Origin: a virus
Virus record (IMG/VR): IMGVR_UViG_3300049255_000405
Length of the DNA: 64,000 nt
Reading direction: 5' to 3' (one strand)
Shown here: piece by piece, positions 1,805-16,445 of the stretch
Layout: each line of letters begins with the position of its first letter
Position numbering within the stretch: position 1 is the stretch's first letter
The notes under the pieces: model-generated
What the model was told of the DNA's origin: nothing
Databases searched by the model: none
What the model saw: the letters and a program-made list of their open reading frames with translations, nothing else
Translations under genes and position numbers: made by a program

Positions 1805-2689
1805 GTGAGTCCGATGACCGGACTCGGACTCGCAAAAGAGCAGATGGATCAGATGCTCGAGGAAGTGGCCGGATACACGGTCCACCTCGAGGAAGACCCG
1901 ACGCTCCCGGAACTCGGTACGAGATACCTGCAGCGTGTCCTGGCTCAATGCCGCAACTACACGAACAGGGTGCAGCACTACCTGCAGCTCTGCATGCGGG
2001 CCGAGCGGGCACTGCTCACCGAAATCAAGCAGGCGGAACTCGACTTCGAGTTCAAGGTCAAGGAGAAGCTTGCTGACGACGCTATTGTGAGGCAGCAGCG
2101 CGCCCTGGACGACCGCAAGGCCCTAGCCGAGAGTCTCCTCAAGGTCGAGGCCGAGAACCTGATGCTGCTCCGGGTTCAGCTCATCGATGTCCAGGAGACG
2201 GTCAAGCTACTGAAGTTCAAGTATAGCGACCTGGCCAGAACGAGCCAGGACATCAAAATGCAGCGCGCCCTTGTCAAGGACGACAAGATGGCGCAGCTCG
2301 CCGGCGAAGAGGGCTACAACAAGCCCCAAACGAACCCGGACCGGTCGGTGCCGAACGGGATGCCTGCTCCCGTGGCTCCAGAATCGCTGGGCCCCAAAGA
2401 GCTTTTGGACCCGAACAAGCGCCCGGAAGAGCTTCCGGAACCCATCGACGAGGCGCACGCCCAACAGATGGCCGAGTTCCTCCGACGCAACCCGGAGAAG
2501 CGGTCGTCGGAGCCGCCTCCGGCCGAGAAGAAAAAGAACGGACTTCTTTGTTCGGTCTGCAAGAGCCCGCAGTACGACACTCCTTCCGGAACAGTCTGCG
2601 ACAACCATCATGGTGGGGCAGACGGGGTCCCGCCGGAGCCCGAGCCGGCCATCAATTCCGGGGTGGATTACGGGGATCTCCTGACCTGA
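1805..2689 (+). CDS. Hypothetical coiled-coil protein with C-terminal Cys pair
   Basis: 294 aa ORF with GTG start (ATG at 1814 is an alternative); heptad-rich middle; CSVCKSP...CDNHH. Confidence 0.55.
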   Translation: MSPMTGLGLAKEQMDQMLEEVAGYTVHLEEDPTLPELGTRYLQRVLAQCRNYTNRVQHYLQLCMRAERALLTEIKQAELDFEFKVKEKLADDAIVRQQRALDDRKALAESLLKVEAENLMLLRVQLIDVQETVKLLKFKYSDLARTSQDIKMQRALVKDDKMAQLAGEEGYNKPQTNPDRSVPNGMPAPVAPESLGPKELLDPNKRPEELPEPIDEAHAQQMAEFLRRNPEKRSSEPPPAEKKKNGLLCSVCKSPQYDTPSGTVCDNHHGGADGVPPEPEPAINSGVDYGDLLT

Positions 2690-2813
2690 GGCTGTTACAA
2701 CTCTAGCCTTCAAATGTAGAGTCTTTTTGCAAGCCGGGGTAACAGCTGGCTGCGTTCAAGGTTACGGTTAACGTTCAAGATGGCCGCCGGCCAAATTGTC
2801 AGGAGAAAGTCAG

Positions 2814-3707
2814 ATGTCAGAGGCAATGGAGTTTGGGTTCGACGACGCGAAGGTCATCAAGCACCAGGGGATCGACCAGTTCAAGCTGAGCAAGACGGGC
2901 GAGCGCGCCCGCATCAGCGTCATCTCCTTCAAGAAGTTCCAAGACAAGGTCATCGCCATGAAGGCGAAGGAGAAGGGTTCCCCGCTCTCGGACGCCGAGA
3001 AGGCGGACATCATCTCCAAGATCGACAAGAAGCTCGCTGACCAGCTGGGCAAGCCGGTCGAGCAGCTCACCGAGGTCGACAGGCTCGACATCAAGCAGCC
3101 GCGGTTCCTGCTCGCCTACACACACTACGACAAGACCGACATCAAGGACGGCGGCGTCGGCACCATCCGCTGCCTCTCCGGGTACGAGGGCAACACGCTC
3201 GTCAAGCCCGAGCTGTGCTGCAACAAGTTCGGTGACGCCGAGCAGACGGTCGGCACCGTGGTCATGAAGTACCCGGTCGACGACAACATGCAGGTGGAGA
3301 TGGACATCTTCAAGATGAAGAAGATGACCGAGTTCGCCGTCTGGCGCATGTCGGCCAAGAAGTTCAAGAACCTCGAGTCGACCTACATCGAGGCGCACAA
3401 CGAGAAGAAGTTCTGCATCGACCTGCGCGTCCAGCTCGAGGGCGACCCGAAGTTCAAGAACCTCAAGATCGAGGCCGGCGGCGGCGCGACGTGGGCACGT
3501 GAGGACGTCGACCCGGCGATCCGCGCGTGGGTTCTCGACCAGGGGCTGCGCGCGTGGAAGCACGTCGCCAACAACCTCGGGTTCGAGATGAACAAGGAGA
3601 AGCTCGCCGAGCGTCTCGGTGGCGCCAAGGCTTCACCGCAGATCGCGGCCGAGGCTCAGGCCGAACAGCCCAAGCTCGTCGAGAGCTACGAATCACTGCT
3701 GACCTGA
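2814..3707 (+). CDS. Hypothetical Lys-rich protein; strong RBS suggests an abundant product
   Basis: AGGAG 9 nt upstream of ATG 2814; 297 aa; no recognisable motif. Confidence 0.6.
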   Translation: MSEAMEFGFDDAKVIKHQGIDQFKLSKTGERARISVISFKKFQDKVIAMKAKEKGSPLSDAEKADIISKIDKKLADQLGKPVEQLTEVDRLDIKQPRFLLAYTHYDKTDIKDGGVGTIRCLSGYEGNTLVKPELCCNKFGDAEQTVGTVVMKYPVDDNMQVEMDIFKMKKMTEFAVWRMSAKKFKNLESTYIEAHNEKKFCIDLRVQLEGDPKFKNLKIEAGGGATWAREDVDPAIRAWVLDQGLRAWKHVANNLGFEMNKEKLAERLGGAKASPQIAAEAQAEQPKLVESYESLLT

Positions 3708-3717
3708 GGAACCATCA

Positions 3718-4056
3718 GTGCTACTCAGCGGCGAGGCTGTCCACCTCGACAAGGGCAACACCCATGTCAAGCTGGATGAAGAATCGGTACGCAGGCTGGG
3801 CAAGGATCCTACGGAAGTAGACGTCCTTGCCGGCTTCAATACCTCCCAAGCCAGATATGTCGAGGATGGAGACAAAGTCGATCTCCTCTACGAAGGTGTC
3901 TGGAAAATGGAGAAGGGCCTGAAGGGTCCATGCAACGGTGCTCCCCCGTCCTATCGGGGCATTCGTGCTGAGTATTTCTATCTTTTCGGCACTGTCCGAG
4001 AGGTGGTCTTGACTCAGCGGCGAGTGCGAGTCGAGCCGGAACCCTTCGTCATCTAG
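3718..4056 (+). CDS. Hypothetical protein
   Basis: Track ORF with GTG start. Confidence 0.35.
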   Translation: MLLSGEAVHLDKGNTHVKLDEESVRRLGKDPTEVDVLAGFNTSQARYVEDGDKVDLLYEGVWKMEKGLKGPCNGAPPSYRGIRAEYFYLFGTVREVVLTQRRVRVEPEPFVI

Positions 4057-4089
4057 GTCGCGTGTCGGGCGGTAGCGGTTGAGGTAGAG

Positions 4090-4746
4090 ATGCCGAAGCC
4101 CTACCGCCCGAAACGTATTGGAGACCCGCTCCGGAAGTTCAAGCAGCCACGCAAAGAGCAGACGTGGTGGACGGCACAGCGGAAGTTCCTCGAGAAAACG
4201 ATGGAGGAAGACCACCGGGCGGGCCTTCCTCTTCGCGCGTGCATGTACACGTCGCATGTCTCGGGGCTCCCTGACGGTTGGTTCTTCGACAAAGCGCGCG
4301 ACATCGGGTACAAGTTCGACGACCCACGAGAGTTCGCCAAAGAACAACTCGCGAAGTGTTTCAAAACTGCCGATCGTCTCGAGAGTTATGTCGACACCTT
4401 CGTGCACATGCTCCGGCTCCTCTTTTCGCCAAAGGACTTCGAGTCGCTTGGGCCTAACTTCAAGGCGGAAGTGCTCGCAACGATGCGGCGGGAGCAGGCC
4501 AAGGGTAAGCCAATCACATTCGGTATGGGGGATGGTAATACCCGGAATCCTCGGAAATCGGAGTATGTGGCGGGTAGCAAGGGCCGGCTAGTTACCTGGA
4601 ACCCACCGAATGAGCAAGAAAAATCGGCCGAGAGTGATCGGGGACCCGCTTCGGAAGTTCAAGCAGCCGCACAAGAAGAACGAGTGTCCGCCAGCGATGC
4701 GGAAGATGCTCGAGGAGATGATGGAGCTGGACCATCGAGAGGGTAG
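4090..4746 (+). CDS. Hypothetical protein, paralog A of a tandem pair (IGDPLRKFKQP N-terminal motif)
   Basis: Shares N-terminus with the next ORF: R(P/V)IGDPLRKFKQP...(H/D)R(A/E)G(L/R)PLRA...(L/M)PD(G/K)WFF(D/E)KAR(D/A)(I/L)GYKFD. Confidence 0.55.
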   Translation: MPKPYRPKRIGDPLRKFKQPRKEQTWWTAQRKFLEKTMEEDHRAGLPLRACMYTSHVSGLPDGWFFDKARDIGYKFDDPREFAKEQLAKCFKTADRLESYVDTFVHMLRLLFSPKDFESLGPNFKAEVLATMRREQAKGKPITFGMGDGNTRNPRKSEYVAGSKGRLVTWNPPNEQEKSAESDRGPASEVQAAAQEERVSASDAEDARGDDGAGPSRG

Positions 4747-5110
4747 ACCTCTCCGGGCCGCTCTGACGACTTCCTCGAAGTCGGGAATGCCCGACAAGTG
4801 GTTCTTCGAGAAGGCCCGCGCCCTCGGGTACAAGTTCGATAATGAGTTCGAGTTCTGGTCGGATCAGTGCAAGCAGGTTTTTGCTCTGCGCACGGACCAC
4901 GAGTCCGATCTCGACGCGAGCGTGATGCGCACAGAAGAGAAAATGCGCCGGCAATACGGCGACGAAGCCTTCGAGGCCGCGGTCTGTCACAAGTACGGCA
5001 CCGTCATCGCGTGGCGCGAAGAAGTCAAGAAGATCGGCGAGGAAGCCTATCAGCAAGGCATCGCCGGCGCAAAGCTGGCACTTGAAGACAAGAAAGCCCG
5101 CCTGCACTAG
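4610..5110 (+). CDS. Hypothetical protein, paralog B of the tandem pair
   Basis: As above; start lies inside the 3' end of paralog A in another frame. Confidence 0.55.
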   Translation: MSKKNRPRVIGDPLRKFKQPHKKNECPPAMRKMLEEMMELDHREGRPLRAALTTSSKSGMPDKWFFEKARALGYKFDNEFEFWSDQCKQVFALRTDHESDLDASVMRTEEKMRRQYGDEAFEAAVCHKYGTVIAWREEVKKIGEEAYQQGIAGAKLALEDKKARLH

Positions 5111-5132
5111 CCGTTGAGCGTATTGTGGTGGG

Positions 5133-5867
5133 GTGCGAGTCCTCGGTCTCGACCCCAGCCTGACGGCGTACGGCTGGGCTGTACACGACGACGCGGCGAC
5201 GGGGCAGAAGAGGCGCGTGGCGAGCGGCCACGAAGGGACTCTTCCGTCTACCGTGCCGGTCGTGCGGTTCATGCACTTCCGGGCGCTAGTTAGCGACCTG
5301 CTGCGCCGTTACAACGTAGAACTCGTCGGGCTCGAGAGCCCGGCGTATCAGGCGGGTCCTTTCCAGCGGATCCACTTCGGCCTGATGATGTTCTCGCTCG
5401 AGGCGGTCTTCGAGAAGAGGCTCGACCTCGTTCTGTTCGACCCGGCGACGCTCAAGATGCTCGCCAAGGGAGATCCAGCCAAGCACAAGGGAGCCATGTC
5501 CAAGATGGACATGCAGCGCCGAGTGCAGCTGGATACTATGGCCGCGGGCGTCATAGATAACAACGAGGCCGACGCTTACCTGGTCGGCAAGTATGCGGCC
5601 CGGTTCAAGAGCCTGCGTGACGGCACCATCGAACCATCCCAATTGGAACCCTCCGAGAGGTTAGTTTTCATAGAACGGACCCGCCGTGTCAAAACTATGG
5701 CCGGCGTTGTACGTAAACGGGTAGCTCACGCCTTTCGAGAAAATTCTCGGTTCTTCAGCTTCTCTCAGGTCCCGGCGGGCCAAGTGTCCCTTCCCGCCAA
5801 ATCTGTGATAAGGCCGGAGATCTTGGCGTTCCTGGACTCTCTCGAGGCTTCCGAAGACAAGAAATGA
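5133..5867 (+). CDS. ruvC: RuvC-like Holliday junction resolvase
   Basis: N-terminus MRVLGLDPSLTAYGWAV matches the RuvC catalytic start (ILGIDPG..T.GYGV); 244 aa. Confidence 0.7.
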   Translation: MRVLGLDPSLTAYGWAVHDDAATGQKRRVASGHEGTLPSTVPVVRFMHFRALVSDLLRRYNVELVGLESPAYQAGPFQRIHFGLMMFSLEAVFEKRLDLVLFDPATLKMLAKGDPAKHKGAMSKMDMQRRVQLDTMAAGVIDNNEADAYLVGKYAARFKSLRDGTIEPSQLEPSERLVFIERTRRVKTMAGVVRKRVAHAFRENSRFFSFSQVPAGQVSLPAKSVIRPEILAFLDSLEASEDKK

Positions 5868-5877
5868 GGATGGCGAG

Positions 5878-7185
5878 ATGGCGAAGAATGGTATGACCTG
5901 GCATCCGAAGCTCGACAAGTGGCGCAAGGTCATGGACAAGCGCGTCAATCTCAAGGACGTCATCGTCCAGCCGTCTTTTCGAGTCGCGTGCATCAACACG
6001 GGCTCGACCGTTCTGAATCTGCTCATCGGCGGCAGCCGGCTCGAGGACGGCGCGTTCGTTTGCCCCGGGTATCCCAAGGGCAAGATCATCGAAATCTTCG
6101 GTCGCGAGAGTTCGGGCAAATCCACAATCGCCATGATGGCGATGGGCCAAGCCTGCCAGCAGAACGACAACACGGGGTGCGGCCTCTACGTCGACCTCGA
6201 GCACGCCGTCATCGACACGTATGCTCTCAAGCTCGGGTGCGATTTCCGTCCGCCGGAGCTGGGAGGGAGTGGCCAAGCCATCCGAGTCGCACCTCACACG
6301 TTCGAGGAGACCGAGGCGCTCGTCGATGCCGCGGCACTCAACGGCGTGGACCTCATCGTCATCGACTCGGTGGCTGGTTTCGTGAGCAAGCGCGAATTCT
6401 CACGAGACATCACCAACGAGAAAGAGAAGCTCGGCGTCGCCGAGGTTCCGCGCTTGATGAGCGGCTGGATGCCGAAGCTTCAGGACATCATCGCGCGGAC
6501 GGGAACGACGGTCATCTTCCTGAATCAAACGCGCGACAAGATCGGTGGCGGCGCCAACATGGCCAAGACCGAAGAGGGCAAGAAGAGCACGACCGGTGGA
6601 AACGCCCTGAAGTTTTGGGCATCGCTCCGGTGGCTCCTCGTCCCCAAGCAGTCGGCGAAGGCCAGCGTATGGAATCCTCTCACCAAGCAGAAGGAAGACG
6701 TCCCCGTCGCCACCGACGTTCTGGTCAAGAACATCAAGAACAAGATCGATGCACGTCAGGGGCACACGGGCCTGGTCACCATTCGCTACGGAGTCGGCAT
6801 CGACGAGATGCGTACGATGATGAACGTCGCCGAGGCGTACAAGATCGTGCAGGTCAAGAAGGCCAAGGGTCAGCCGACCAAGTACCAGTTCAAGGACCCG
6901 GTTTCGAACAGCATCACGGAGGCCGCGGGCATCGAGCGGTTCCGCCTGGCTCTGCAGAGGGACGAGACCGCTTGGGCGAGTCTCAACAACCTCTGCATCG
7001 AGAAGATCATGGCGGGCTTCAAGGCCATCGACGACGAGCAGCTCGCTCAGCTCGCCGAAGACGCGGTCATCGTCAAGACTGACGACGATGACGAGTACGA
7101 GGACCAGAGCACGACCGAGGAAGTCACGCCCGAAGAGATGGACGTGGAAGTCAATGAGGGGCTCGACGCGGAGAGTCTCGCGTGA
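5878..7185 (+). CDS. RecA/UvsX/RadA-family recombinase
   Basis: GYPKGKIIEIFGRESSGKST Walker A in RecA context; acidic C-terminal tail; RBS before ATG. Confidence 0.85.
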   Translation: MAKNGMTWHPKLDKWRKVMDKRVNLKDVIVQPSFRVACINTGSTVLNLLIGGSRLEDGAFVCPGYPKGKIIEIFGRESSGKSTIAMMAMGQACQQNDNTGCGLYVDLEHAVIDTYALKLGCDFRPPELGGSGQAIRVAPHTFEETEALVDAAALNGVDLIVIDSVAGFVSKREFSRDITNEKEKLGVAEVPRLMSGWMPKLQDIIARTGTTVIFLNQTRDKIGGGANMAKTEEGKKSTTGGNALKFWASLRWLLVPKQSAKASVWNPLTKQKEDVPVATDVLVKNIKNKIDARQGHTGLVTIRYGVGIDEMRTMMNVAEAYKIVQVKKAKGQPTKYQFKDPVSNSITEAAGIERFRLALQRDETAWASLNNLCIEKIMAGFKAIDDEQLAQLAEDAVIVKTDDDDEYEDQSTTEEVTPEEMDVEVNEGLDAESLA

Positions 7186-8510
7186 AGCTTCACCCAGTCA
7201 AAATCCACATCCAGAACTTCCAGAGCATCGACGATCTGGAAATTGAGGTGCATGGGTTCACATGCATCACCGGACCGTCGAACGTCGGCAAGAGCGCCAT
7301 CGTGCGCGCCACGTCTTCGGCCATCCTCAACAACCCGGTCGTCGGCATGGTGCGCAAAGGCGCGCAGTTCTGCACGGTGGAAATCTCGTCCGAGGGCTGG
7401 GGCTTCAAGTGGGAGAAGAACGACAAGGGAGTCAACCGCGTGTGGCTCCCCGGCAAAGACAAGCCGCTGGACAAGATCGGACAAGTCCAGGTCAAAGAGA
7501 TCTCGCAGATGGGCTTCGGCTCCATCGAAGTCGGTGACGACGAAATCCAGCCCTGGTTCGCGCCGCAGTTCCAATCGAAGGGGTGTGGACCTCTCTTCTT
7601 GCTGGACCAGTCGGGGCCGAGAGTAACCGACTTCCTGTCTGAAGTGTCGCGGCTGACTATCCTTCAGGACGCCATCGTTCTTGCCGCTCGAGGCAAACGC
7701 GGAGCGACAGACCAGGCCAAGAACAAGCACGAAGAGGCGGCCAACCTCAGGACGCTTCTGGCCCGCATCGGCGCCCTCGACACCCTGGAGAAGCTCGGGC
7801 GCGACCTCGAGGAACAGGCATCGAGCATCGAGCAGTACGAAGAGCGCATCACTCTTGGGGAATCACTCATCGCCAAGAGGGTGGAGGCCGAGCGGATTAT
7901 TCGGATACTCGAAAAGGTCGATGACGTAAAGATTCCCAAGGACGTAGCGGCCGAGCCCATTCAGAAGTTCCGCGACGTCTACCGCATCTGCGCTCTGCTC
8001 GAGAAGAGCGCGGCAAAAGTCCGCGACGTCCGGGACGTCTCTAAGGTGAAGGTTCCGGACCTTCTGGACGAAGAGATAGGCAAACTCCGCGAGCTGCAAC
8101 GGTTCGCTCAGCTGGAACCGCTACGCCAGTCGGTCAAGCTCCTGGAAGACCTCACGAAGGTCAAGGTTCCAGACTCCAAGAAACTCCGGGCCGAGATGGA
8201 GAAACTCTCGACCATCGCCGGGTACGCCACGAAGATAGAGGCTGCCCGAGCTTCGGTCGCTCTGCTCGATCAGGATGTACCGACCCCGGAGGATATCGAG
8301 GAGGTCAAGAGGCTTCGGCAACTCCTGGAACTCGACCAGCGCCTCCAAGAGGCGGCAGCCGATGTCATGACCCTCGAAGCCCAGGTCAAGCAGAACGACG
8401 CCGACCTGGAGAAAATCGACAAGGCCATCGCCGCCATTCCGGCTTGCCCAACGTGTCACCGACCGTGGAGCCCCGAGCACACCGGACGGCACAAGAAGCT
8501 GTCGGCCTAG
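7182..8510 (+). CDS. SMC/Rad50/SbcC-like ATPase N-terminal half: head N-lobe plus coiled coil ending in a CxxC hook
   Basis: GTGA overlap with recA-like stop; GPSNVGKSA P-loop after beta-rich N-terminus; long coiled coil; C-terminal IPACPTCHRPW. Confidence 0.6.
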   Translation: MKLHPVKIHIQNFQSIDDLEIEVHGFTCITGPSNVGKSAIVRATSSAILNNPVVGMVRKGAQFCTVEISSEGWGFKWEKNDKGVNRVWLPGKDKPLDKIGQVQVKEISQMGFGSIEVGDDEIQPWFAPQFQSKGCGPLFLLDQSGPRVTDFLSEVSRLTILQDAIVLAARGKRGATDQAKNKHEEAANLRTLLARIGALDTLEKLGRDLEEQASSIEQYEERITLGESLIAKRVEAERIIRILEKVDDVKIPKDVAAEPIQKFRDVYRICALLEKSAAKVRDVRDVSKVKVPDLLDEEIGKLRELQRFAQLEPLRQSVKLLEDLTKVKVPDSKKLRAEMEKLSTIAGYATKIEAARASVALLDQDVPTPEDIEEVKRLRQLLELDQRLQEAAADVMTLEAQVKQNDADLEKIDKAIAAIPACPTCHRPWSPEHTGRHKKLSA

Positions 8511-8998
8511 CGCTTCGTCTTCTCCGACCAGCGCCGCAGGTCGTCCAGGTGGTGGGTGTCGAGGACGACCGTGTCCTCGGCAAAGACCCGGAGACCAACG
8601 TTCGCACCCGAGATTTCGGCGAGCTGCCTGCCGACCTCGATAGCTTCCAGCTCCATTGCCATGAGCACTTGCAGGAACCCGTCCAGGTTGGGCGGGCACG
8701 CGGGAATCTGAATATAGGTCTGCATGGGGTCGGCGCCCATGCCGATGACCTTCATGTTCAGCGCGTACGTGTTCTTGCGCTCGTCCTCGGCATGCTCGTA
8801 CCAGTGCTCGGCGAGGCCGTCGCGGTACGGGCCGAGGAGCCGGTCCGCGAAGTTCCGATACGCCATGTCGATGGCGTACTTGGCCGAAAGGAACTTCTGC
8901 AGGTGCGCGATCACCTGGCCTTCCGGGACTGCGAACTCGCCCTCTTTGGACGGCATCGTGGCCACGCGGCTGGCGATTCGTAGGCGTCGAGCGTCCAT
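8507..8998 (-). CDS. Ferritin-like/Dps-like four-helix-bundle protein (tentative)
   Basis: Internal start of track ORF 8507..9415; helical profile with H/E/D spacing loosely resembling Dps; function uncertain. Confidence 0.35.
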   Translation of the reverse strand: MDARRLRIASRVATMPSKEGEFAVPEGQVIAHLQKFLSAKYAIDMAYRNFADRLLGPYRDGLAEHWYEHAEDERKNTYALNMKVIGMGADPMQTYIQIPACPPNLDGFLQVLMAMELEAIEVGRQLAEISGANVGLRVFAEDTVVLDTHHLDDLRRWSEKTKR

Positions 8999-9037
8999 TC
9001 GATCGCGACGAGGGATAAAAAGTGGTACTATTGCTAA

Positions 9038-9331
9038 GTGAGACGCATCGACTGGGCCTTCGTGACCAAGGACAAGGGGCTCGCACTGATGACCGTCCCG
9101 GACCTCGCCGGCAATGGCGAAATGTATCTTGCTGATTTTCGGGATACGCAAGCGTTGGGTTACAGAGCGACCAAGCACTTCGTCGGACTTTCGAAGACTC
9201 GAGGACTCCGACTCGGCGGCCACCCATTGCGGATGATCGATGGGGTCTGGTATATCACCGAGGACACTCAGACGGGCGTCCAGGATCTTCAAGTTTCTGA
9301 TGAAGCGTTCTGCCTGCAACCCATAAGGTGA
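9038..9331 (+). CDS. Hypothetical protein
   Basis: Track ORF; lies antisense to the implausible N-terminal extension of the - strand ORF. Confidence 0.3.
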   Translation: MRRIDWAFVTKDKGLALMTVPDLAGNGEMYLADFRDTQALGYRATKHFVGLSKTRGLRLGGHPLRMIDGVWYITEDTQTGVQDLQVSDEAFCLQPIR

Positions 9332-9360
9332 GTCATTGTTTATGCGGGAGCACGAGAGAG

Positions 9361-9831
9361 ATGGCAAACGAGATTGACGGTCTCCACCTTGTCGTAGACG
9401 GACTGGTGGAGTCACCCAAGAAGGTCTTCAGCGAGAAGAACCTCCGGGCGCTGCTTCTTCAACTGGTCAAAGACCTCAAGATGCAGCTCATCTTCGGTCC
9501 CGTCTTTCACGAGGTCGAGATCGAACCGTCTCGGCTGACCGGCGACGTGTTCCAGGACGAGGGCGGTATCTCGGGATTCTGCATGATCGGGACGAGCCAC
9601 ATCTCGATTCACGTGTGGCCGCTCCGAAAGCACTTCTCGATGGACGTGTTCTCCTGCAAGCAGTTCGACAGGGAGCTTGCCCGAGAGACCATCGAAAAGA
9701 TGCTCGACCCCACCCAGGCTTCCTACGTCGCTGTTCAGAGGCGGCAGGGTGGGTTTGTGACCGAGCAGGAGCCCGAATCGGCTACGTACGCCCGTCCGGT
9801 GCACGAGCAATCCGTCGCTGCGGCCCCGTGA
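9361..9831 (+). CDS. speH: S-adenosylmethionine decarboxylase proenzyme, small pyruvoyl-dependent SpeH/SpeD type
   Basis: GLHLVVDG...GISGFCMIGTSHISIHVWP...MDVFSCKQFD aligns with SpeH (GRHLV...[20 protein letters not shown]...IDLFTCG). Confidence 0.8.
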   Translation: MANEIDGLHLVVDGLVESPKKVFSEKNLRALLLQLVKDLKMQLIFGPVFHEVEIEPSRLTGDVFQDEGGISGFCMIGTSHISIHVWPLRKHFSMDVFSCKQFDRELARETIEKMLDPTQASYVAVQRRQGGFVTEQEPESATYARPVHEQSVAAAP

Positions 9832-11331: not shown

Positions 11332-11946
11332 TTACGCCGCCAGTGCGCGCAGGCCCTCACGCAGCAGCGAGTGAAGGTCCTCGGACCGCGTACGGTCGCC
11401 CAGCTCCGCAACGAACTTGCGGACCTCGGTCTTCTTGAAGCCAAGTCCCACGAGGGCTGAGGTCAGCTTGTCGGACTGATCCTCGCCGTCGACCTGCGGC
11501 AGGACCGGGGACTCGACGGCAACCGTGGTCTCCGGCTGCATGCCGGCGAACACGTCGTGCGGGGCCGTCTGCACGGCGCGCAGCTTGAGCAGCGCCACCT
11601 GGCGATCCTCGGGTGACAGTGCGTTCTTGAAGCATTCGGCCGCGACTCCGTGCAGCCGGTCGACGTCGGCGATGTCGATCATGAAGTCCACGAACGGGAC
11701 CTCCTGAGTCCGATCCGAACGGGTCCCGACATTGCGGTAATCGCGGACCACCTGCAGAAGCTCGCAGTTGTCCGAGACTCGGCCCTGCTCCACGAGCAGG
11801 TGCTCGATGCACAGCACCGCCCACGGGTTGGTGGCCTCGACTGACAGGAGCCCCTCGCCGAGCGCGAACAGGAACAGTGCCCTCTGCGTCCCGAACGACG
11901 GGTGGCCCTGCGGGAGAATCTGCTCGAACGCTTCCTGGAGTTCCAT
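11332..11946 (-). CDS. Hypothetical protein with RuvA domain III-like (UBA-like) C-terminus
   Basis: C-terminal LTSALVGLGFKKTEVRKFVAELG...LLREGLRALA resembles RuvA domain III (ALVALGYK..EA...V..I.....LIREAL); N-terminus is not RuvA-like. Confidence 0.5.
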   Translation of the reverse strand: MELQEAFEQILPQGHPSFGTQRALFLFALGEGLLSVEATNPWAVLCIEHLLVEQGRVSDNCELLQVVRDYRNVGTRSDRTQEVPFVDFMIDIADVDRLHGVAAECFKNALSPEDRQVALLKLRAVQTAPHDVFAGMQPETTVAVESPVLPQVDGEDQSDKLTSALVGLGFKKTEVRKFVAELGDRTRSEDLHSLLREGLRALAA

Positions 11947-12672: not shown

Positions 12673-13374
12673 ATGCGCATCCTGATTACTGGGTTCGACC
12701 CGCAGTGGGGCATCAAGAAGACCCCTTCCGGGGAAGTGGCCAAGTTGTGGGCCTCGGGCGATATTCAGGTGCCCGGAATCGAGACGCATGCCATTGTGCT
12801 GCCGCAGATCTTCGGCAAGAGCGCCGAGATCGCCTGCGCCGAGATCCAGACGTTCGACCCGCAGGCGGTACTGATGTTCGGCGCCACAATGCACAACGAC
12901 CCCGTGCGCCTCGAGCGCTTCGCTATCAATTGCGAAGCGTCAGTGATGGGTGACAACACTCGCATTCCAGTCGTGCCCGACCGCAACATCGTCCAGGGCG
13001 GACCTGCCGCCTACGAGTCCACTCTGCCCGTGTACTGGCTGATGGACCACCTCAACGCCCAGGGCATCGACTGCAAGGTCTCGTATCACGCCGGGACGCA
13101 CACGTGCAACTCTCTCATGTACAACGTGCTGCACTTCCTGGCAAGCAAGCCGCACCCGATGCCTGTCATCGCGGGCTTCATTCACGTACCGTTTCCTAAC
13201 GAATTCGGGGTGATTGAAGACTCGCTATGGACGACGGCAACGTTCGAGGGGATAGTGCAAGCCTCAGTTGGCTTGGTGCAGAAGGTACGGGACTGGTACC
13301 AAGACAAGTACGGACCCGTGCCGATCAACACTTCTGCTCCATCGAATACTTCGACCACGAAGGCGAAAAAGTAA
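12673..13374 (+). CDS. pcp: Pyroglutamyl-peptidase I (pyrrolidone-carboxylate peptidase, C15)
   Basis: MRILITGFDP...QGGPAAYEST...VSYHAGTHTCNSLMY...GFIHVPF aligns along the whole Pcp length with the Glu/Cys/His triad. Confidence 0.9.
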   Translation: MRILITGFDPQWGIKKTPSGEVAKLWASGDIQVPGIETHAIVLPQIFGKSAEIACAEIQTFDPQAVLMFGATMHNDPVRLERFAINCEASVMGDNTRIPVVPDRNIVQGGPAAYESTLPVYWLMDHLNAQGIDCKVSYHAGTHTCNSLMYNVLHFLASKPHPMPVIAGFIHVPFPNEFGVIEDSLWTTATFEGIVQASVGLVQKVRDWYQDKYGPVPINTSAPSNTSTTKAKK

Positions 13375-13489
13375 TTCGGCACGCCTTTTTGAGCGTCGAA
13401 GAGCAGAAATTCCTCATCGAGGAGTGCGCCCGCCGCGGCCTCGAGGCCAAGGTCCACGACCTTCATCCTCCGGCTGTAAGCTCGGACCA

Positions 13490-14113
13490 ATGAAGGAGCC
13501 GAGAGACTGGACCAACGTCATCGACGCTATCTCCGGAGACGTGCGTCGGTTGAGCTACGTCGTGCGCTACAGTAGCATTCCGATAAGCGTTCCGGAGAAC
13601 GTCGCCGAGCACTCGTACTGGGTGGCTCTCTTCGCGGCCGTCATACACAAGACGCTGCATCCCGGAGACTACGAAGGCGTTGGGCCTGTAGTCTTGGGCG
13701 CCATTCTGCACGACACGGCCGAATGCGTGACCGGCGATCTGGTGCGCACATTCAAATACTCTTCCGACAAGCTCCGTCAGGCCATCGACGAGGCCGAGCA
13801 GGTGGCGGTGGCCAAGTTCCCGTCGCCCATCTTGAACGTGTACGATTTGCAGCAGCAGATTCAGTTCAAGAAGAAGGACTACGTCAAGCAGGTCGTCAAA
13901 GCGGCCGACTTCATGAGCCTCATGCAGTACATGGTCCGAGAAGTCCGTCGCGGCAATCGCGAGATCATCAATCCGTTCTACCTCCGCATGGAGGAGGACC
14001 TGAGCCAAATGCGCCGCATCTTGGCCGAGCAGCAGGACACGGAGTGGGGACAGCTCGAGAGCTTGTACCGTGACATGAACAATCACGCCAGAGCGGCTAG
14101 GATGGGCGGATGA
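13490..14113 (+). CDS. HD-domain phosphohydrolase, YfbR-like 5'-deoxynucleotidase
   Basis: VAEHSYWVALFA...ILHDTAECVTGDL motif; internal ATG 13490 of track ORF 13268..14113. Confidence 0.8.
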   Translation: MKEPRDWTNVIDAISGDVRRLSYVVRYSSIPISVPENVAEHSYWVALFAAVIHKTLHPGDYEGVGPVVLGAILHDTAECVTGDLVRTFKYSSDKLRQAIDEAEQVAVAKFPSPILNVYDLQQQIQFKKKDYVKQVVKAADFMSLMQYMVREVRRGNREIINPFYLRMEEDLSQMRRILAEQQDTEWGQLESLYRDMNNHARAARMGG

Positions 14114-14643
14114 ACGGGAACATCGAGACCAAGAGCGAGATCCGCGCCAGAATAGACGAGCTGCAAAAGCTCCGCGAGATGTTCTGGAGCAGCAAGACTG
14201 CTATCCTTGTCGAGGACCAGATCGACAAGCGCCTGCAGGAGCTGCACCGTGATCTCTCCTCGGCCGAAGAAGACCTTTCGTCCTCCATCATCCGTTCCCA
14301 CAAGGCCATCTGCAAGGCCAAGCAGATGGACGAGAAAGCGGCGTACGGCAACGATCCCGCGGTCTATTACACCCTCGGCATCTGCGGCGAAGCCGGAGAG
14401 ATGGCCAATGCCATCGTCAAGGCGCAGCGCAACGGCGCAGACCAAGCGAAGGTGCTCGAGGCCATAAAGGGAGAGCTGCCCGATGTGGTCATTTATTCGT
14501 ACGTTCTTGCGTACGTTCTGGACATCGATCTTTCGAAGCTTGTCAACGAGAAGGTCGAAGTCGTCATCGACCGAGCTAACAAGGGTTACTATGGACGCCC
14601 CCTATCGCACCCCAGCGGAAGTTCCGGAACAACCGGCACCTAA
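14110..14643 (+). CDS. mazG: MazG-like nucleoside triphosphate pyrophosphohydrolase
   Basis: ATGA overlap with the HD gene; LGICGEAGEMANAIVK EExxE core typical of MazG family. Confidence 0.75.
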   Translation: MNGNIETKSEIRARIDELQKLREMFWSSKTAILVEDQIDKRLQELHRDLSSAEEDLSSSIIRSHKAICKAKQMDEKAAYGNDPAVYYTLGICGEAGEMANAIVKAQRNGADQAKVLEAIKGELPDVVIYSYVLAYVLDIDLSKLVNEKVEVVIDRANKGYYGRPLSHPSGSSGTTGT

Positions 14644-15162: not shown

Positions 15163-15669
15163 CTACTGCCCGCGCGGTCTGCCCGTGATGCTCCCGTCGA
15201 GGTTCCCGAAGAACTGCTTGTAGACGGGCAGCGTATTGCCGTTGATGCGACGAGTGGCCACCGCGTCCGAATCGAGCGGGTCCTGGATGAGCGACGACTG
15301 GTTGGCGAGCGCCACGAGATCCACGTCGTTCGTGATGCGCAGAAGGTCTTTCTTGGCGTCCGGGTTGCGGACGAGAACCGTGTAGACCTCTCCGAACGTC
15401 AGCTCGTCGAGGATGCAGCGACCGACTCCCTGCGTGAATCCTGGCGGAGGCGGAGTGAACCAGACGTTGGGTGTCTGGATGTCGCCCGAACACGTCGTGC
15501 AGCAGTTCTTGTCCGGGTTGACCATGTTGTGCATCTGCAGGCGACCCTGGCCACAGATGCACGGACGACGCTGGCAGGCGCAAGGAGGCGCCGGCGGACA
15601 GGGCGGGAGGCGGTTTCCGACGACCGGACCGAAGCACCGACAGGGGTTGCAGTTGCACGAGCAAGTCAT
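15163..15669 (-). CDS. Cys-rich protein with metallothionein-like N-terminus, translationally coupled to the CN-hydrolase
   Basis: ATGA overlap with the nitrilase stop; MTCSCNCNPCRCFGP...PPCPPAPPCACQRRPCICGQG...NCCTTCSG. Confidence 0.55.
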   Translation of the reverse strand: MTCSCNCNPCRCFGPVVGNRLPPCPPAPPCACQRRPCICGQGRLQMHNMVNPDKNCCTTCSGDIQTPNVWFTPPPPGFTQGVGRCILDELTFGEVYTVLVRNPDAKKDLLRITNDVDLVALANQSSLIQDPLDSDAVATRRINGNTLPVYKQFFGNLDGSITGRPRGQ

Positions 15670-16445
15670 TGGGCACCCGTAGTGGCGGTCACGACGCAGT
15701 CTTTGCTGAACTCCACGCCGCCGGTGTGGCACGTCCAGTCAGGTTCGATGATGATGGATCCGCCCTGACCGAATTCACCCTTGAAGCCGTGCGAGCCAAG
15801 CTCTTCCCCCCACCGGTTGGCGATGATGAGGGTGCACTTCTCGTCGGTGGCAAAGTCCATCCACGACGTCGACGGGTAGCCTCCCTTGCCCCAGTTCACG
15901 CTCGCGGCTACGAGGTCGAGCTTCTGGCCGCTGAATAGTGGAATGCTCTTCGCGGCCACGCGAGGAATGTTCTGCGGGATCTTGTTACGCAGATCCCGGC
16001 ACACGACGATAGAAGTCGATCCGAAATCGGTCTCGACCACAGGAGCGCTCGCGATACCCGGCGTGGCCCACAGAAAGTCGTTGCCCCAAAGGTTGACTTT
16101 GCGGTAGCTCGTCAGAAGCTTGCCGTCCGGACCAACCAAGGAGGCCGAGTTGTAGAGGTGGGTTCCATCGGTCTCGACGTAGCCCCAAGAGACGTACGCC
16201 TTCAGCTCGAGAGCGACTCCCCGCATGAATCGGAAGGTCGGTCCGTCCGAAGCCTCACAGACCCGGGATGCCTCGTCCTTGTTCAGGAAAGAGTACCCAG
16301 TGAAGCAAAGCTCCGGGAAGGCGATGAACTGCGACCCGAGCTGGGCCGCTTGATGGATGAGAGACTCCACCCGGCGGTAGTTGTTGCCCACCTCGGCCAT
16401 ACTGGCGGCCAAACGCGGGCGGAACTGCACAGCCGACAGAATCAC
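15666..16445 (-). CDS. Carbon-nitrogen hydrolase (nitrilase superfamily) protein
   Basis: AVQF N-terminus; FPELCFTGY (Glu), YRKVNLWG (Lys), VVCRDLR (Cys) catalytic-triad pattern. Confidence 0.8.
   Translation of the reverse strand: MILSAVQFRPRLAASMAEVGNNYRRVESLIHQAAQLGSQFIAFPELCFTGYSFLNKDEASRVCEASDGPTFRFMRGVALELKAYVSWGYVETDGTHLYNSASLVGPDGKLLTSYRKVNLWGNDFLWATPGIASAPVVETDFGSTSIVVCRDLRNKIPQNIPRVAAKSIPLFSGQKLDLVAASVNWGKGGYPSTSWMDFATDEKCTLIIANRWGEELGSHGFKGEFGQGGSIIIEPDWTCHTGGVEFSKDCVVTATTGAQ

Follow-up and report, generated by a model that had tools for sequence, protein, structure and literature searches.

A Rad50/SbcC-type ATPase probably made as two polypeptides by a lineage of huge phages

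The viral DNA analysed here (the window: 64 kb out of an 85.6-kb contig) raises the question of why a phage recombination cassette, otherwise ordinary in its gene content, should include what looks like half of an ABC ATPase. The open reading frame at 7182..8510 (on the + strand, like all features of the window described here) encodes a 442-aa protein, for which a sequence-only reading had proposed three explanations: a split gene, a remnant, or a novel single-armed hook protein. Our data argue for the first of these. The product of the frame is very probably the N-terminal subunit (Rad50-N) of an ABC ATPase of the Rad50/SbcC type, which a lineage of huge phages, a large group with genomes of ~200-530 kb, makes as two polypeptides, here termed N-half and C-half. 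Both the split and the unequal arms of the two halves appear not to have been described previously.

The RuvC-like, RecA/UvsX-like and SMC-type ATPase genes are consecutive, as had been read from the sequence alone, but the reported overlap holds only for the RecA gene and the third gene, which share the GTGA at 7182-7185; between the RuvC-like and RecA genes there is a 10-nt gap. The RuvC-like Holliday junction resolvase (5133..5867, 244 aa) is recognised by PHROG 159 (E = 1.3e-16), shows the motifs LGLDPS, GLESP and NNEADAY as read from its sequence, and is 37.5% identical to its counterpart in a related locus (L004:7895-8602); its score against the NCBIfam RuvC model (20.2 bits, E = 4e-4) is below the curated cut-off of 163, and a Pfam scan gave no match. 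The RecA/UvsX-like recombinase (5878..7185, 435 aa) has a RecA core ATPase domain that clears the Pfam gathering score (PF00154, 131.9 bits against a cut-off of 27), and also matches PHROG 97 (UvsX-like, E = 1.5e-45) and TIGR02012 (E = 1.6e-41, under the equivalog cut-off). Further upstream, a five-gene recombination block begins with a conserved 294-aa protein (p294, 1805..2689), which is without a match in Pfam or PHROG and 29% identical to L004:5892-6944; a homolog lies 5' of RuvC, RecA and N-half in most of 64 related loci. The second member is a conserved 303-aa protein (p303, 2796..3707) with a very high GC3 of 0.92 and no family match in Pfam, PHROG or NCBIfam. Its position is kept in related loci and is the one at which phage Tunturi_5 has the annotated single-stranded DNA-binding protein (SSB) gp185, to which p303 is weakly similar (E = 0.08). 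The RuvC-like gene lies 5' of the RecA and N-half genes in 57 of the 64 loci, and the order RuvC, RecA, N-half with RecA directly 5' of the N-half is found in 52, most of which have the p294 and p303 genes to complete the block.

The ABC-ATPase head N-lobe of Rad50-N comprises residues 1-155 (7182..7646), as judged from motifs, Pfam, an AF2 model and Foldseek. Its Walker A motif GPSNVGKSA, on which the sequence-only reading had based the identification of the lobe, corresponds to residues 31-39 (nt 7272-7298) and the Q-loop Gln129 to nt 7566-7568, and the Pfam families AAA_23 (27.7 bits, cut-off 27), AAA_15 and AAA_29 all match residues 7-50 only. In an alignment of 103 homologs, which are 22-90% identical to the window's protein, the Walker A motif is invariant, the residues conserved in every sequence being G31, N34, G36, K37, S38, R42, W77, Q129, F139, L140, C422 and C425. 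The architecture of N-lobe, helical arm and terminal CxxC is not a product of chance, because it is the same in all 103. Nearly all of 109 homolog clusters have lengths of 380-458 aa. At 50% identity and E <= 1e-30 the family contains at least 1,281 clusters, almost all of 380-460 aa and alike in architecture, and every one of the best 150 of these is <= 465 aa, so that there are no fused forms among those 150. The AF2 model of the N-half (pLDDT 83.8, the N-lobe mostly > 85) finds its best PDB matches in the Rad50 N-terminal fragment chains 9a9j_A, 1f2u_A, 3qkr_A and 1ii8_A; Foldseek likewise matches the N-lobe to the N-lobes of RecN and SMC proteins.

A C-lobe (signature, Walker B, D-loop and H-loop) is absent from the 442-aa polypeptide, as is an intramolecular antiparallel coiled coil between two lobes. 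The earlier observation that neither a C-lobe nor an SbcD/Mre11 partner lies nearby extends to the whole window: motif regex, tblastn, phmmer, family HMMs and Pfam scans of large ORFs revealed no ABC C-lobe, no Mre11/SbcD and no conventional SbcC/Rad50 in the 64 kb. We thus encountered neither a full-length SbcCD in the window nor an indication that the ORF encodes an unrelated coiled-coil protein.

Related genomes possess both missing components. The operon of a sister clade consists of RuvC, RecA, N-half, an Mre11-like nuclease, a PD-(D/E)XK nuclease, a small coiled-coil protein (a conserved helical hairpin of 95 aa), a ~400-aa protein and the C-half. In 50 of ~51 loci of the sister clade, the very next gene after the N-half is the Mre11-like Metallophos gene, which keeps the motifs GD, GNHD and GHxH, and the C-half gene follows 3.5-5 kb downstream on the same strand. 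In the clade of the window, all 16 loci lack the partners within +/-10 kb: here the operon breaks off behind Rad50-N, and the module from Mre11 to Rad50-C sits on the same contig at a distance of 26-220 kb. Five contigs of this clade contain both modules (L012/L076, L013/L073, L014/L087, L007/L099 and L006/L131), and a locus with an N-half 33% identical to that of the window (L017) bridges the two clades and has both partners nearby. The window lacks a partner because such distances separate the module from the N-half in related genomes, and we infer that the genome to which it belongs has the partner genes too, beyond the 64 kb. Of the explanations offered by the sequence-only reading, it is therefore the split gene that the relatives bear out.

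The C-half, or Rad50-C, is a protein of ~225 aa (206-241) with a single 78-residue helix followed by a C-lobe that contains a signature-like [FY]GGG, the Walker B motif LLxLDE and the H-loop VTH. Its model (pLDDT 89.9, helix at residues 3-80) is best matched by the Rad50 C-terminal fragment chains 9a9j_B, 1f2u_D and 1ii8_B, so the AF model of each half pairs off with the corresponding fragment, N- or C-terminal, of P. furiosus Rad50. At the level of sequence profiles, the C-half aligns to positions 798-884 of the 895 of Rad50 and, as its best match, to the signature-to-H-loop region of SMC heads.

The arm of Rad50-N comprises a proximal part, one 87-residue helix (residues 158-244, 7653..7913, from the AF2 helix boundaries), and a distal part with helices at residues 257-288, 296-322, 332-363 and 373-417 (7914..8432, DSSP of the AF2 model). 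The coiled coil of about 300 aa proposed earlier is thus retained as a long helical arm, but it measures ~260 aa (158-417) and is a series of five Pro-separated helices, not a continuous coiled coil. The breaks between the distal helices are conserved and contain proline (VKIPK, VKVPD, VKVPD and DVPTPE), and the distal arm (~160 residues) is built of ~40-aa units, with self-similarity at offsets of 38, 78 and 115. Its length varies among homologs, the alignment showing indels of whole units, and the arm lengths of the two halves do not track each other (N-half proteins are 330-499 aa long, against the 206-241 aa of the C-half). Since ~260 helical residues face only 78, the arms cannot form the antiparallel coiled coil with a hook at its apex that is canonical for Rad50.

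At its end the arm carries the motif C422-P-T-C425 (nt 8445-8456), which together with a tail containing His432 and His436 constitutes a putative zinc site (8445..8507). The details noticed in the sequence are accurate here: the arm ends in CPTCH (residues 422-426), the protein stops 16 residues later, and the model has an outgoing arm only, with no returning coiled coil. The CxxC is present in 103/103 members, where the last helix ends and 8-27 residues from the C-terminus. We infer from these sequence features that the terminal CxxC would bind zinc, in a site that could be either hook-like or an intrachain C2H2. The latter is possible because at least two His follow the CxxC in 84 of the 103 members (consensus CPTCxRPxxxxHxH), and it leads to a reading to which we give real weight while holding it short of probable, in which the CxxC and His form a C2H2-type zinc knuckle docking on DNA or on another subunit and the arm serves as spacer or scaffold. 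The lack of a returning helix for a canonical hook hairpin agrees with such a knuckle, as does Magritte gp155, a relative that has the arm and no CxxC. However, the His are missing in P0099, P0102, P0104 and Tunturi_5 gp181 and are thus not invariant as the CxxC is, and there is a profile similarity to Rad50 hook structures, albeit weak (6zff_A, E = 0.015; 1l8d_A, E = 0.06).

Three further explanations of the half ATPase have to be weighed. The protein could be a decaying remnant, a truncated and non-functional leftover of a full-length sbcC/rad50, as the absent C-lobe and the lack of a partner in the 64-kb window might suggest. This second proposal of the sequence-only reading is contradicted by the conservation of the family and can effectively be ruled out: more than 1,200 clusters are of constant length, the Walker A, Q-loop and CxxC residues are invariant even among the most divergent of the aligned sequences, the gene is translationally coupled to recA in a conserved synteny, and its GC3 of 0.78 is high like that of the neighbouring genes. 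An origin in a different ABC/SMC-type system (RecN-, RecF-, OLD/Gabija- or SMC-like) with a role in recombination mediation, genome segregation or anti-defence is improbable, but has more in its favour. The best profile match of the N-lobe is RecN 4ad8_A (E = 5e-6), followed by Rad50 and OLD, the C-half is by sequence closest to SMC heads, and members of the family are variously annotated at source as RecN, 'chromosome segregation ATPase' and SbcC. Because the N-lobe alone also resembles RecN, SMC, OLD and GajA, the assignment to Rad50 draws mainly on the linkage to Mre11 and on the way in which the fold matches of the two halves complement each other. Several results speak against a different system: in ~50 loci an Mre11-like metallophosphoesterase with its motifs is directly linked in the operon, Rad50 fragments are the best fold matches of both halves, a CxxC closes a long helix, which is a hallmark of Rad50/SbcC, and the SbcC-like PHROG 77 matches the arm (E = 4.6e-9).

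It is also conceivable, if unlikely, that in the clade of the window the N-half has become a stand-alone single-armed protein independent of C-half and Mre11, for example a DNA tether that binds ATP without hydrolysing it, or an accessory factor of RecA. Such independence would explain why the break-up of the operon left the N-half beside RuvC and RecA, in tight linkage and translational coupling to the latter, with the Mre11/C-half module moving 26-220 kb away; moreover, the distal arm and the putative zinc motif belong to the N-half subunit alone. On the other hand, every long-enough contig of the clade that was examined retains the C-half and the Mre11-like gene with catalytic motifs intact, Walker A and Q-loop are invariant, though without a C-lobe they would have no hydrolytic role, and the proximal helix (87 aa) still fits the C-half helix (78 aa) in length. 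The single-armed hook protein of the sequence-only reading is apt in part, for it captures the shape of a protein whose arm, over most of its length, meets no returning C-half helix.

For the two-polypeptide Rad50, we envisage that the proximal helix of Rad50-N would pair in antiparallel orientation with the helix of Rad50-C, bringing the two lobes together into one ATPase head, by analogy to the two-fragment constructs of the P. furiosus Rad50 catalytic domain in crystal structures. ATP would bring two such heads together, gating the Mre11-like nuclease. The complex would in this way prepare DNA ends for replication and repair that depend on recombination by RecA, in the role that T4 gp46/47 plays with UvsX. 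The distal arm, without a returning Rad50-C helix, might join two complexes via zinc at the terminal CxxC. More tentatively, and on balance doubtfully, the split may represent a new SMC-like architecture: a multi-subunit Rad50 ring in which the hook is a chain terminus instead of a hairpin apex. The two-chain antiparallel coiled coil would then be limited to the proximal arm (~80 residues), and the distal arm with its 40-aa units would consist of Rad50-N alone, steadied by a second Rad50-N in parallel or by the 95-aa helical-hairpin protein, its free C-terminus clasped by the Cys2(His2) zinc site.

The phage system shares with Mre11-Rad50, SbcCD and T4 gp46-gp47 a head with Walker A and Q-loop in the N-lobe and signature, Walker B and H-loop in the C-lobe, a helical arm that emerges between the lobes with a putative zinc motif (CxxC) at its far end, an Mre11/SbcD-type metallophosphoesterase partner (in the relatives), and genomic surroundings that include a RecA/UvsX recombinase and a junction resolvase. 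In contrast to these complexes, the ATPase is encoded by two genes, its arms are unequal, its signature is [FY]GGG and not S-G-G, and in the clade of the window the halves and the nuclease lie far apart; because the split falls after the CxxC, the putative zinc motif occupies a free C-terminus instead of the tip of a helical hairpin. The division of the head between two chains recalls the engineered Rad50 catalytic domains (PDB 1f2u, 1ii8 and 9a9j), in which separate N- and C-terminal fragments assemble into an active-type head. However, these are laboratory truncations without coiled coil and hook, whereas the phage split is natural and its N-subunit keeps the long arm and the putative zinc motif. 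RecN, SMC and OLD/GajA proteins are similar in the fold of the head N-lobe and in the P-loop, and the C-half aligns to the C-lobes of SMC heads, but they have both lobes on one chain and no Mre11-type nuclease partner. With the exception of Rad50/SbcC, we know of none whose arm ends in a CxxC zinc motif.

A cultured relative is available in the Tunturiibacter phage Tunturi_5 (complete, 308,711 bp), which shares with the window the order SSB, RuvC, UvsX, N-half, the SSB being putative in the window. Its N-half gp181, annotated as 'exonuclease', matches the family HMM over the full length (E = 1.5e-34) and ends in CGKCG; over the N-lobe it is ~31% identical to the window's protein. Unlike in the window's clade, the SbcD-like gene (gp177) comes after the N-half and stays near it; the C-lobe gene gp14 ('ATPase') is ~108 kb away. 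The published description of Tunturi_5 makes no mention of the split.

A Rad50 head assembled from two polypeptides would thus be something that nature has built too, and not crystallographers alone. That probably obligate partners can be encoded over 200 kb from each other in a single phage genome is a warning for annotation based on gene neighbourhood. Unequal arms and a putative zinc motif at the chain end clash with the textbook picture, in which an antiparallel coiled coil carries the hook at its apex. Because the family does not fit this model, it offers a natural, minimal setting in which to ask what Rad50 needs its arm and hook for, with Tunturi_5 and its host as a cultured pair for testing the split Rad50. 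For over a thousand clusters of N-half proteins and several hundred of C-half proteins from huge phages, the present labels ('hypothetical', 'exonuclease', 'RecN', 'chromosome segregation ATPase' or 'ABC transporter ATPase') could give way to an annotation as parts of a single machine of the Mre11-Rad50 type.

The window looks like a piece of a large phage genome: it has genes for a DNA polymerase of family A, helicases of the DnaB-like and SNF2 types, a primase zinc finger, sigma-like factors and DnaJ, as well as tail/baseplate-like genes and an MVP-like protein of 894 aa (30642-33326, -), which lies among replication genes and carries a Major Vault Protein shoulder domain (E = 1.3e-25) and Vault_3 repeats. 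The RuvC-like, RecA/UvsX-like and SMC-type ATPase genes named by the sequence-only reading are all present. The RuvC-like gene (5133-5867, +) matches PHROG 159 (E = 1.3e-16) and the NCBIfam RuvC model at E = 4e-4, under its curated cut-off; the RecA/UvsX-type recombinase (5878-7185, +) matches Pfam RecA with 131.9 bits and PHROG 97 (E = 1.5e-45); Rad50-N (7182-8510, +) matches Pfam AAA_23, AAA_15 and AAA_29 over residues 7-50 only, while its arm matches PHROG 77 'SbcC-like'. The three genes had been read as consecutive and overlapping, which holds for RecA and Rad50-N, sharing GTGA at 7182-7185, but not for RuvC and RecA, which are 10 nt apart. GPSNVGKSA occupies residues 31-39 of Rad50-N and CPTCH residues 422-426, and the chain ends at residue 442. 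The reported absence of a C-lobe and of an SbcD/Mre11 partner near Rad50-N extends across the 64 kb (regex, tblastn, phmmer, family HMMs and Pfam), as does the absence of a conventional SbcC by the same searches. Regexes for signature, Walker B and H-loop and for the Mre11 DxH/GNHD motifs found no match in six frames of the window, and the C-half, Metallophos and PD-(D/E)XK proteins of L004, a related viral locus, gave nothing significant against it (tblastn, phmmer, HMM). Given the presence of the ORFs and motifs and these absences from the 64 kb, the original observation is confirmed with small corrections. The recombination cassette itself is ordinary phage machinery; promoter and terminator scans of window 2600-9500 were uninformative.

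Rad50-N is a conserved protein consisting of an N-lobe, an arm and a CxxC motif. A search of 5.8 billion proteins recovered 109 clusters of homologs, nearly all 380-458 aa long; when 1.84 billion representatives were searched exhaustively with a profile, 1,281 clusters had E <= 1e-30. The best 150 of these 1,281 are all at most 465 aa long, so there are no fused full-length forms among those 150. In an alignment of 103 sequences, G31, N34, G36, K37, S38, R42, W77, Q129, F139, L140, C422 and C425 are invariant, the CxxC stands 8-27 residues before the chain end in every member, and at least two His follow it in 84 of the 103. Length differences in the middle region amount to whole units of about 40 aa, bounded by conserved prolines. 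That Rad50-N is a remnant, as had been offered in explanation, is ruled out by a large family with so fixed an architecture.

The linkage of the N-half to recombination genes is stable: of the 64 IMG/VR loci that the N-half alignment retrieved, 52 have RecA directly 5' of the N-half and RuvC 5' of RecA, and in most of those 52 the genes for two conserved proteins, p294 (window 1805..2689, +) and p303 (2796..3707, +), fill out a five-gene block. A 234-aa protein (1093-1797, +), hydrophobic at its N-terminus and containing part of an FtsH-type M41 peptidase domain (E = 3.3e-11), is kept 5' of the recombination block in relatives. Just 5' of the RuvC-like gene are two tandem, partly overlapping ORFs (4090-4746 and 4610-5110, +) without a family match, whose N-terminal halves are clearly paralogous (RPKRIGDPLRKFKQPRK... 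and RPRVIGDPLRKFKQPHK...).

The complementary C-terminal half and the Mre11-like nuclease, which the sequence-only reading had proposed to look for, were both found in relatives, encoded as separate genes. In L004, a distant family member, the order is RuvC-like, RecA, N-half, Metallophos (313 aa), PD-(D/E)XK (293 aa), and proteins of 90, 415 and 241 aa, the last being the C-half, which combines a short coiled coil at the N-terminus with a C-lobe of SMC type bearing the motifs 'SFGGGP', 'LLVLDEA' and 'LLVTHK'. HMMs of the C-half and Mre11-like proteins, run on the 64 loci, place the Mre11-like gene immediately 3' of the N-half in 50 of about 51 loci of the sister clade, with the C-half following on that strand after another 3.5-5 kb. 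The C-half family (385 and 241 clusters in separate searches; about 207-241 aa) conserves [FY]GGG, LLxLDE and VTH; the Mre11-like family keeps the phosphoesterase motifs GD, GNHD and GHxH and is matched weakly by archaeal Mre11 models.

Two further proteins accompany this module. In 149 loci of both clades, a small conserved protein (about 90-101 aa) is encoded between the PD-(D/E)XK gene and the gene preceding the C-half (L076:4863-5162; L004:13224-13496; L017:14830-15135). It is a helical hairpin, two helices joined by an 'AGYDP' turn, and lacks Cys; the window has no copy. It may serve the split Rad50 machine as an accessory subunit. Directly 5' of the C-half gene, and overlapping it, is the gene of another conserved protein, about 380-415 aa long and without a family match (L076:5162-6301; L004:13505-14752), which may be a sliding-clamp-like candidate, since a 'DNA polymerase processivity factor' gene lies near the C-half gene in the Tunturiibacter phage Tunturi_5.

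In the window's own clade the arrangement is different: among 16 loci whose N-half is 34% or more identical, neither a C-half nor an Mre11-like gene occurs in the 10 kb to either side. Viral contigs were scanned with the Mre11-like alignment A4, and the C-half was then located with a local C-lobe HMM. Five contigs of this clade carry the Mre11-like gene elsewhere, each time with the C-half 2.2-2.4 kb downstream: 3300012980_000004 (393 kb; N-half, 48% identical, at ~86 kb, L012; Mre11 module at ~278 kb, L076), 3300028920_000001 (427 kb; ~52 kb, L013; ~273 kb, L073), 3300032233_002382 (308 kb; ~133 kb, L014; ~292 kb, L087), 3300032782_000001 (436 kb; ~162 kb, L007; ~384 kb, L099) and 3300032053_000004 (202 kb; ~49 kb, L006; ~75 kb, L131). 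Two more candidate genomes with both modules measure 439,200 and 382,860 bp. The order in L076 (RecD2-like helicase, Mre11-like, PD-(D/E)XK, 99-aa hairpin protein, 379-aa protein, C-half) is that of the L004 operon without its RuvC-RecA-N-half block, and L017, whose N-half is 33% identical and still has both partners nearby, bridges the whole and the broken arrangements. The most economical reading is a single ancestral operon, which in the window's clade came apart between N-half and Mre11. We infer that the partner genes lie elsewhere in the window's own genome, from which the source contig spans 85.6 kb; when metagenome contigs were scanned with A6, an alignment of C-halves from the window's clade, the 242-kb contig Ga0556619_0000064 of the 90%-identical relative was not among the hits.

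Structure prediction, likewise proposed earlier, gave a Rad50-type fold, and the two models correspond to complementary fragments of Rad50. The N-half model (pLDDT 83.8; N-lobe, residues 1-155, confident) has its best PDB matches in N-terminal fragment chains of P. furiosus Rad50 (9a9j_A, 1f2u_A, 3qkr_A, 1ii8_A), followed by RecN and SMC heads; a C-half of the window's clade (P0230; pLDDT 89.9), modelled as one 78-residue helix and an alpha/beta lobe, best matches C-terminal fragment chains of the same Rad50 entries (9a9j_B, 1f2u_D, 1ii8_B). The top profile match in the PDB, the leucine-rich-repeat protein 4u08_A, was rejected as an artefact of periodicity and composition in the repetitive arm. 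The coiled coil described earlier as about 300 aa corresponds to a helical arm of about 260 aa followed by CPTC, which the model divides into one 87-residue helix (158-244) and four shorter ones over 257-417. At 87 and 78 residues, the long helix of the N-half and that of the C-half match, which suggests that they pair as a two-chain antiparallel neck. The rest of the N-half arm, about 160 residues, is without counterpart in the C-half, and in 51 genomes with both genes the N-half measures 330-499 aa against only 206-241 aa for the C-half.

Joined by the proximal coiled coil, Rad50-N and the C-half (Rad50-C) would make up a single ATPase head, and ATP-driven engagement of heads would control the Mre11-like nuclease. 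The complex would process DNA ends so that RecA can carry out recombination and recombination-dependent replication, in parallel to what is established for T4 gp46/47 with UvsX. Intermediates would be resolved by the RuvC-, RuvA_C- and, in the related locus L005, RuvB-like proteins. The terminal CxxC, a putative zinc site, would bind zinc and so join two arms. A serious alternative is that the site is an intrachain Cys2His2 and not a hook, given the frequent His in the N-half tail and the absence of the hairpin for a canonical hook; Rad50 hook structures match the N-half C-terminus weakly (6zff_A, E = 0.015; 1l8d_A, E = 0.06).

Several observations concern the surroundings of the cassette. The Rad50-N gene and a convergent ferritin-like gene (-) overlap in their stop codons as CTAG (8507-8510), which leaves no room for a terminator between them. 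Relatives have the ferritin-like gene called at 163-182 aa, far below the 302 aa of the longest ORF here, whose true start is therefore probably internal. A syntenic run of auxiliary metabolic-type genes follows Rad50-N across the clade (window 8507-9415, -; 9328-9831, +; 12673-13374, +; 13268-14113, +; 14110-14643, +; 15666-16445, -); it includes ferritin-like, S-adenosylmethionine decarboxylase and YfbR-like HD 5'-deoxynucleotidase genes, and, matched by position only, a 233-aa ORF where relatives have a pyroglutamyl peptidase (C15) gene and further ORFs where they have MazG-like and CN-hydrolase genes. A 204-aa protein (11332-11946, -), conserved in relatives, matches the RuvA C-terminal domain of Pfam (E = 5.9e-7), and near the cassette one relative also encodes an AAA+ protein of RuvB-like type (L005:4313-5260); the clade may thus hold a RuvA/B/C-like set besides RecA.

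The phage system would work like Mre11-Rad50/SbcCD, but Rad50-N differs from Rad50/SbcC in lacking two features of the single chain, the C-lobe and the intramolecular antiparallel coiled coil. Cultured phages supply examples, unrecognised as split Rad50. Tunturi_5 (complete, 308,711 bp) has gp181 ('exonuclease'), gp177 ('SbcD-like') and, about 108 kb away, gp14 ('ATPase'), the real C-lobe; gp179, considered as C-half for its size and position, is not one and looks like a secreted or PEP-CTERM-like protein. None of these genes is discussed in the Tunturi paper. A second set is gp155 (an arm, no CxxC) and gp2 of Microbacterium phage Magritte. A split Rad50/SbcC was described nowhere in full-text literature searches whose coverage excluded most subscription journals, and this negative is accordingly absence of evidence only. 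The interest of the system lies in its natural split, its unequal arms, a putative zinc motif at the chain terminus, and obligate partners encoded far apart.
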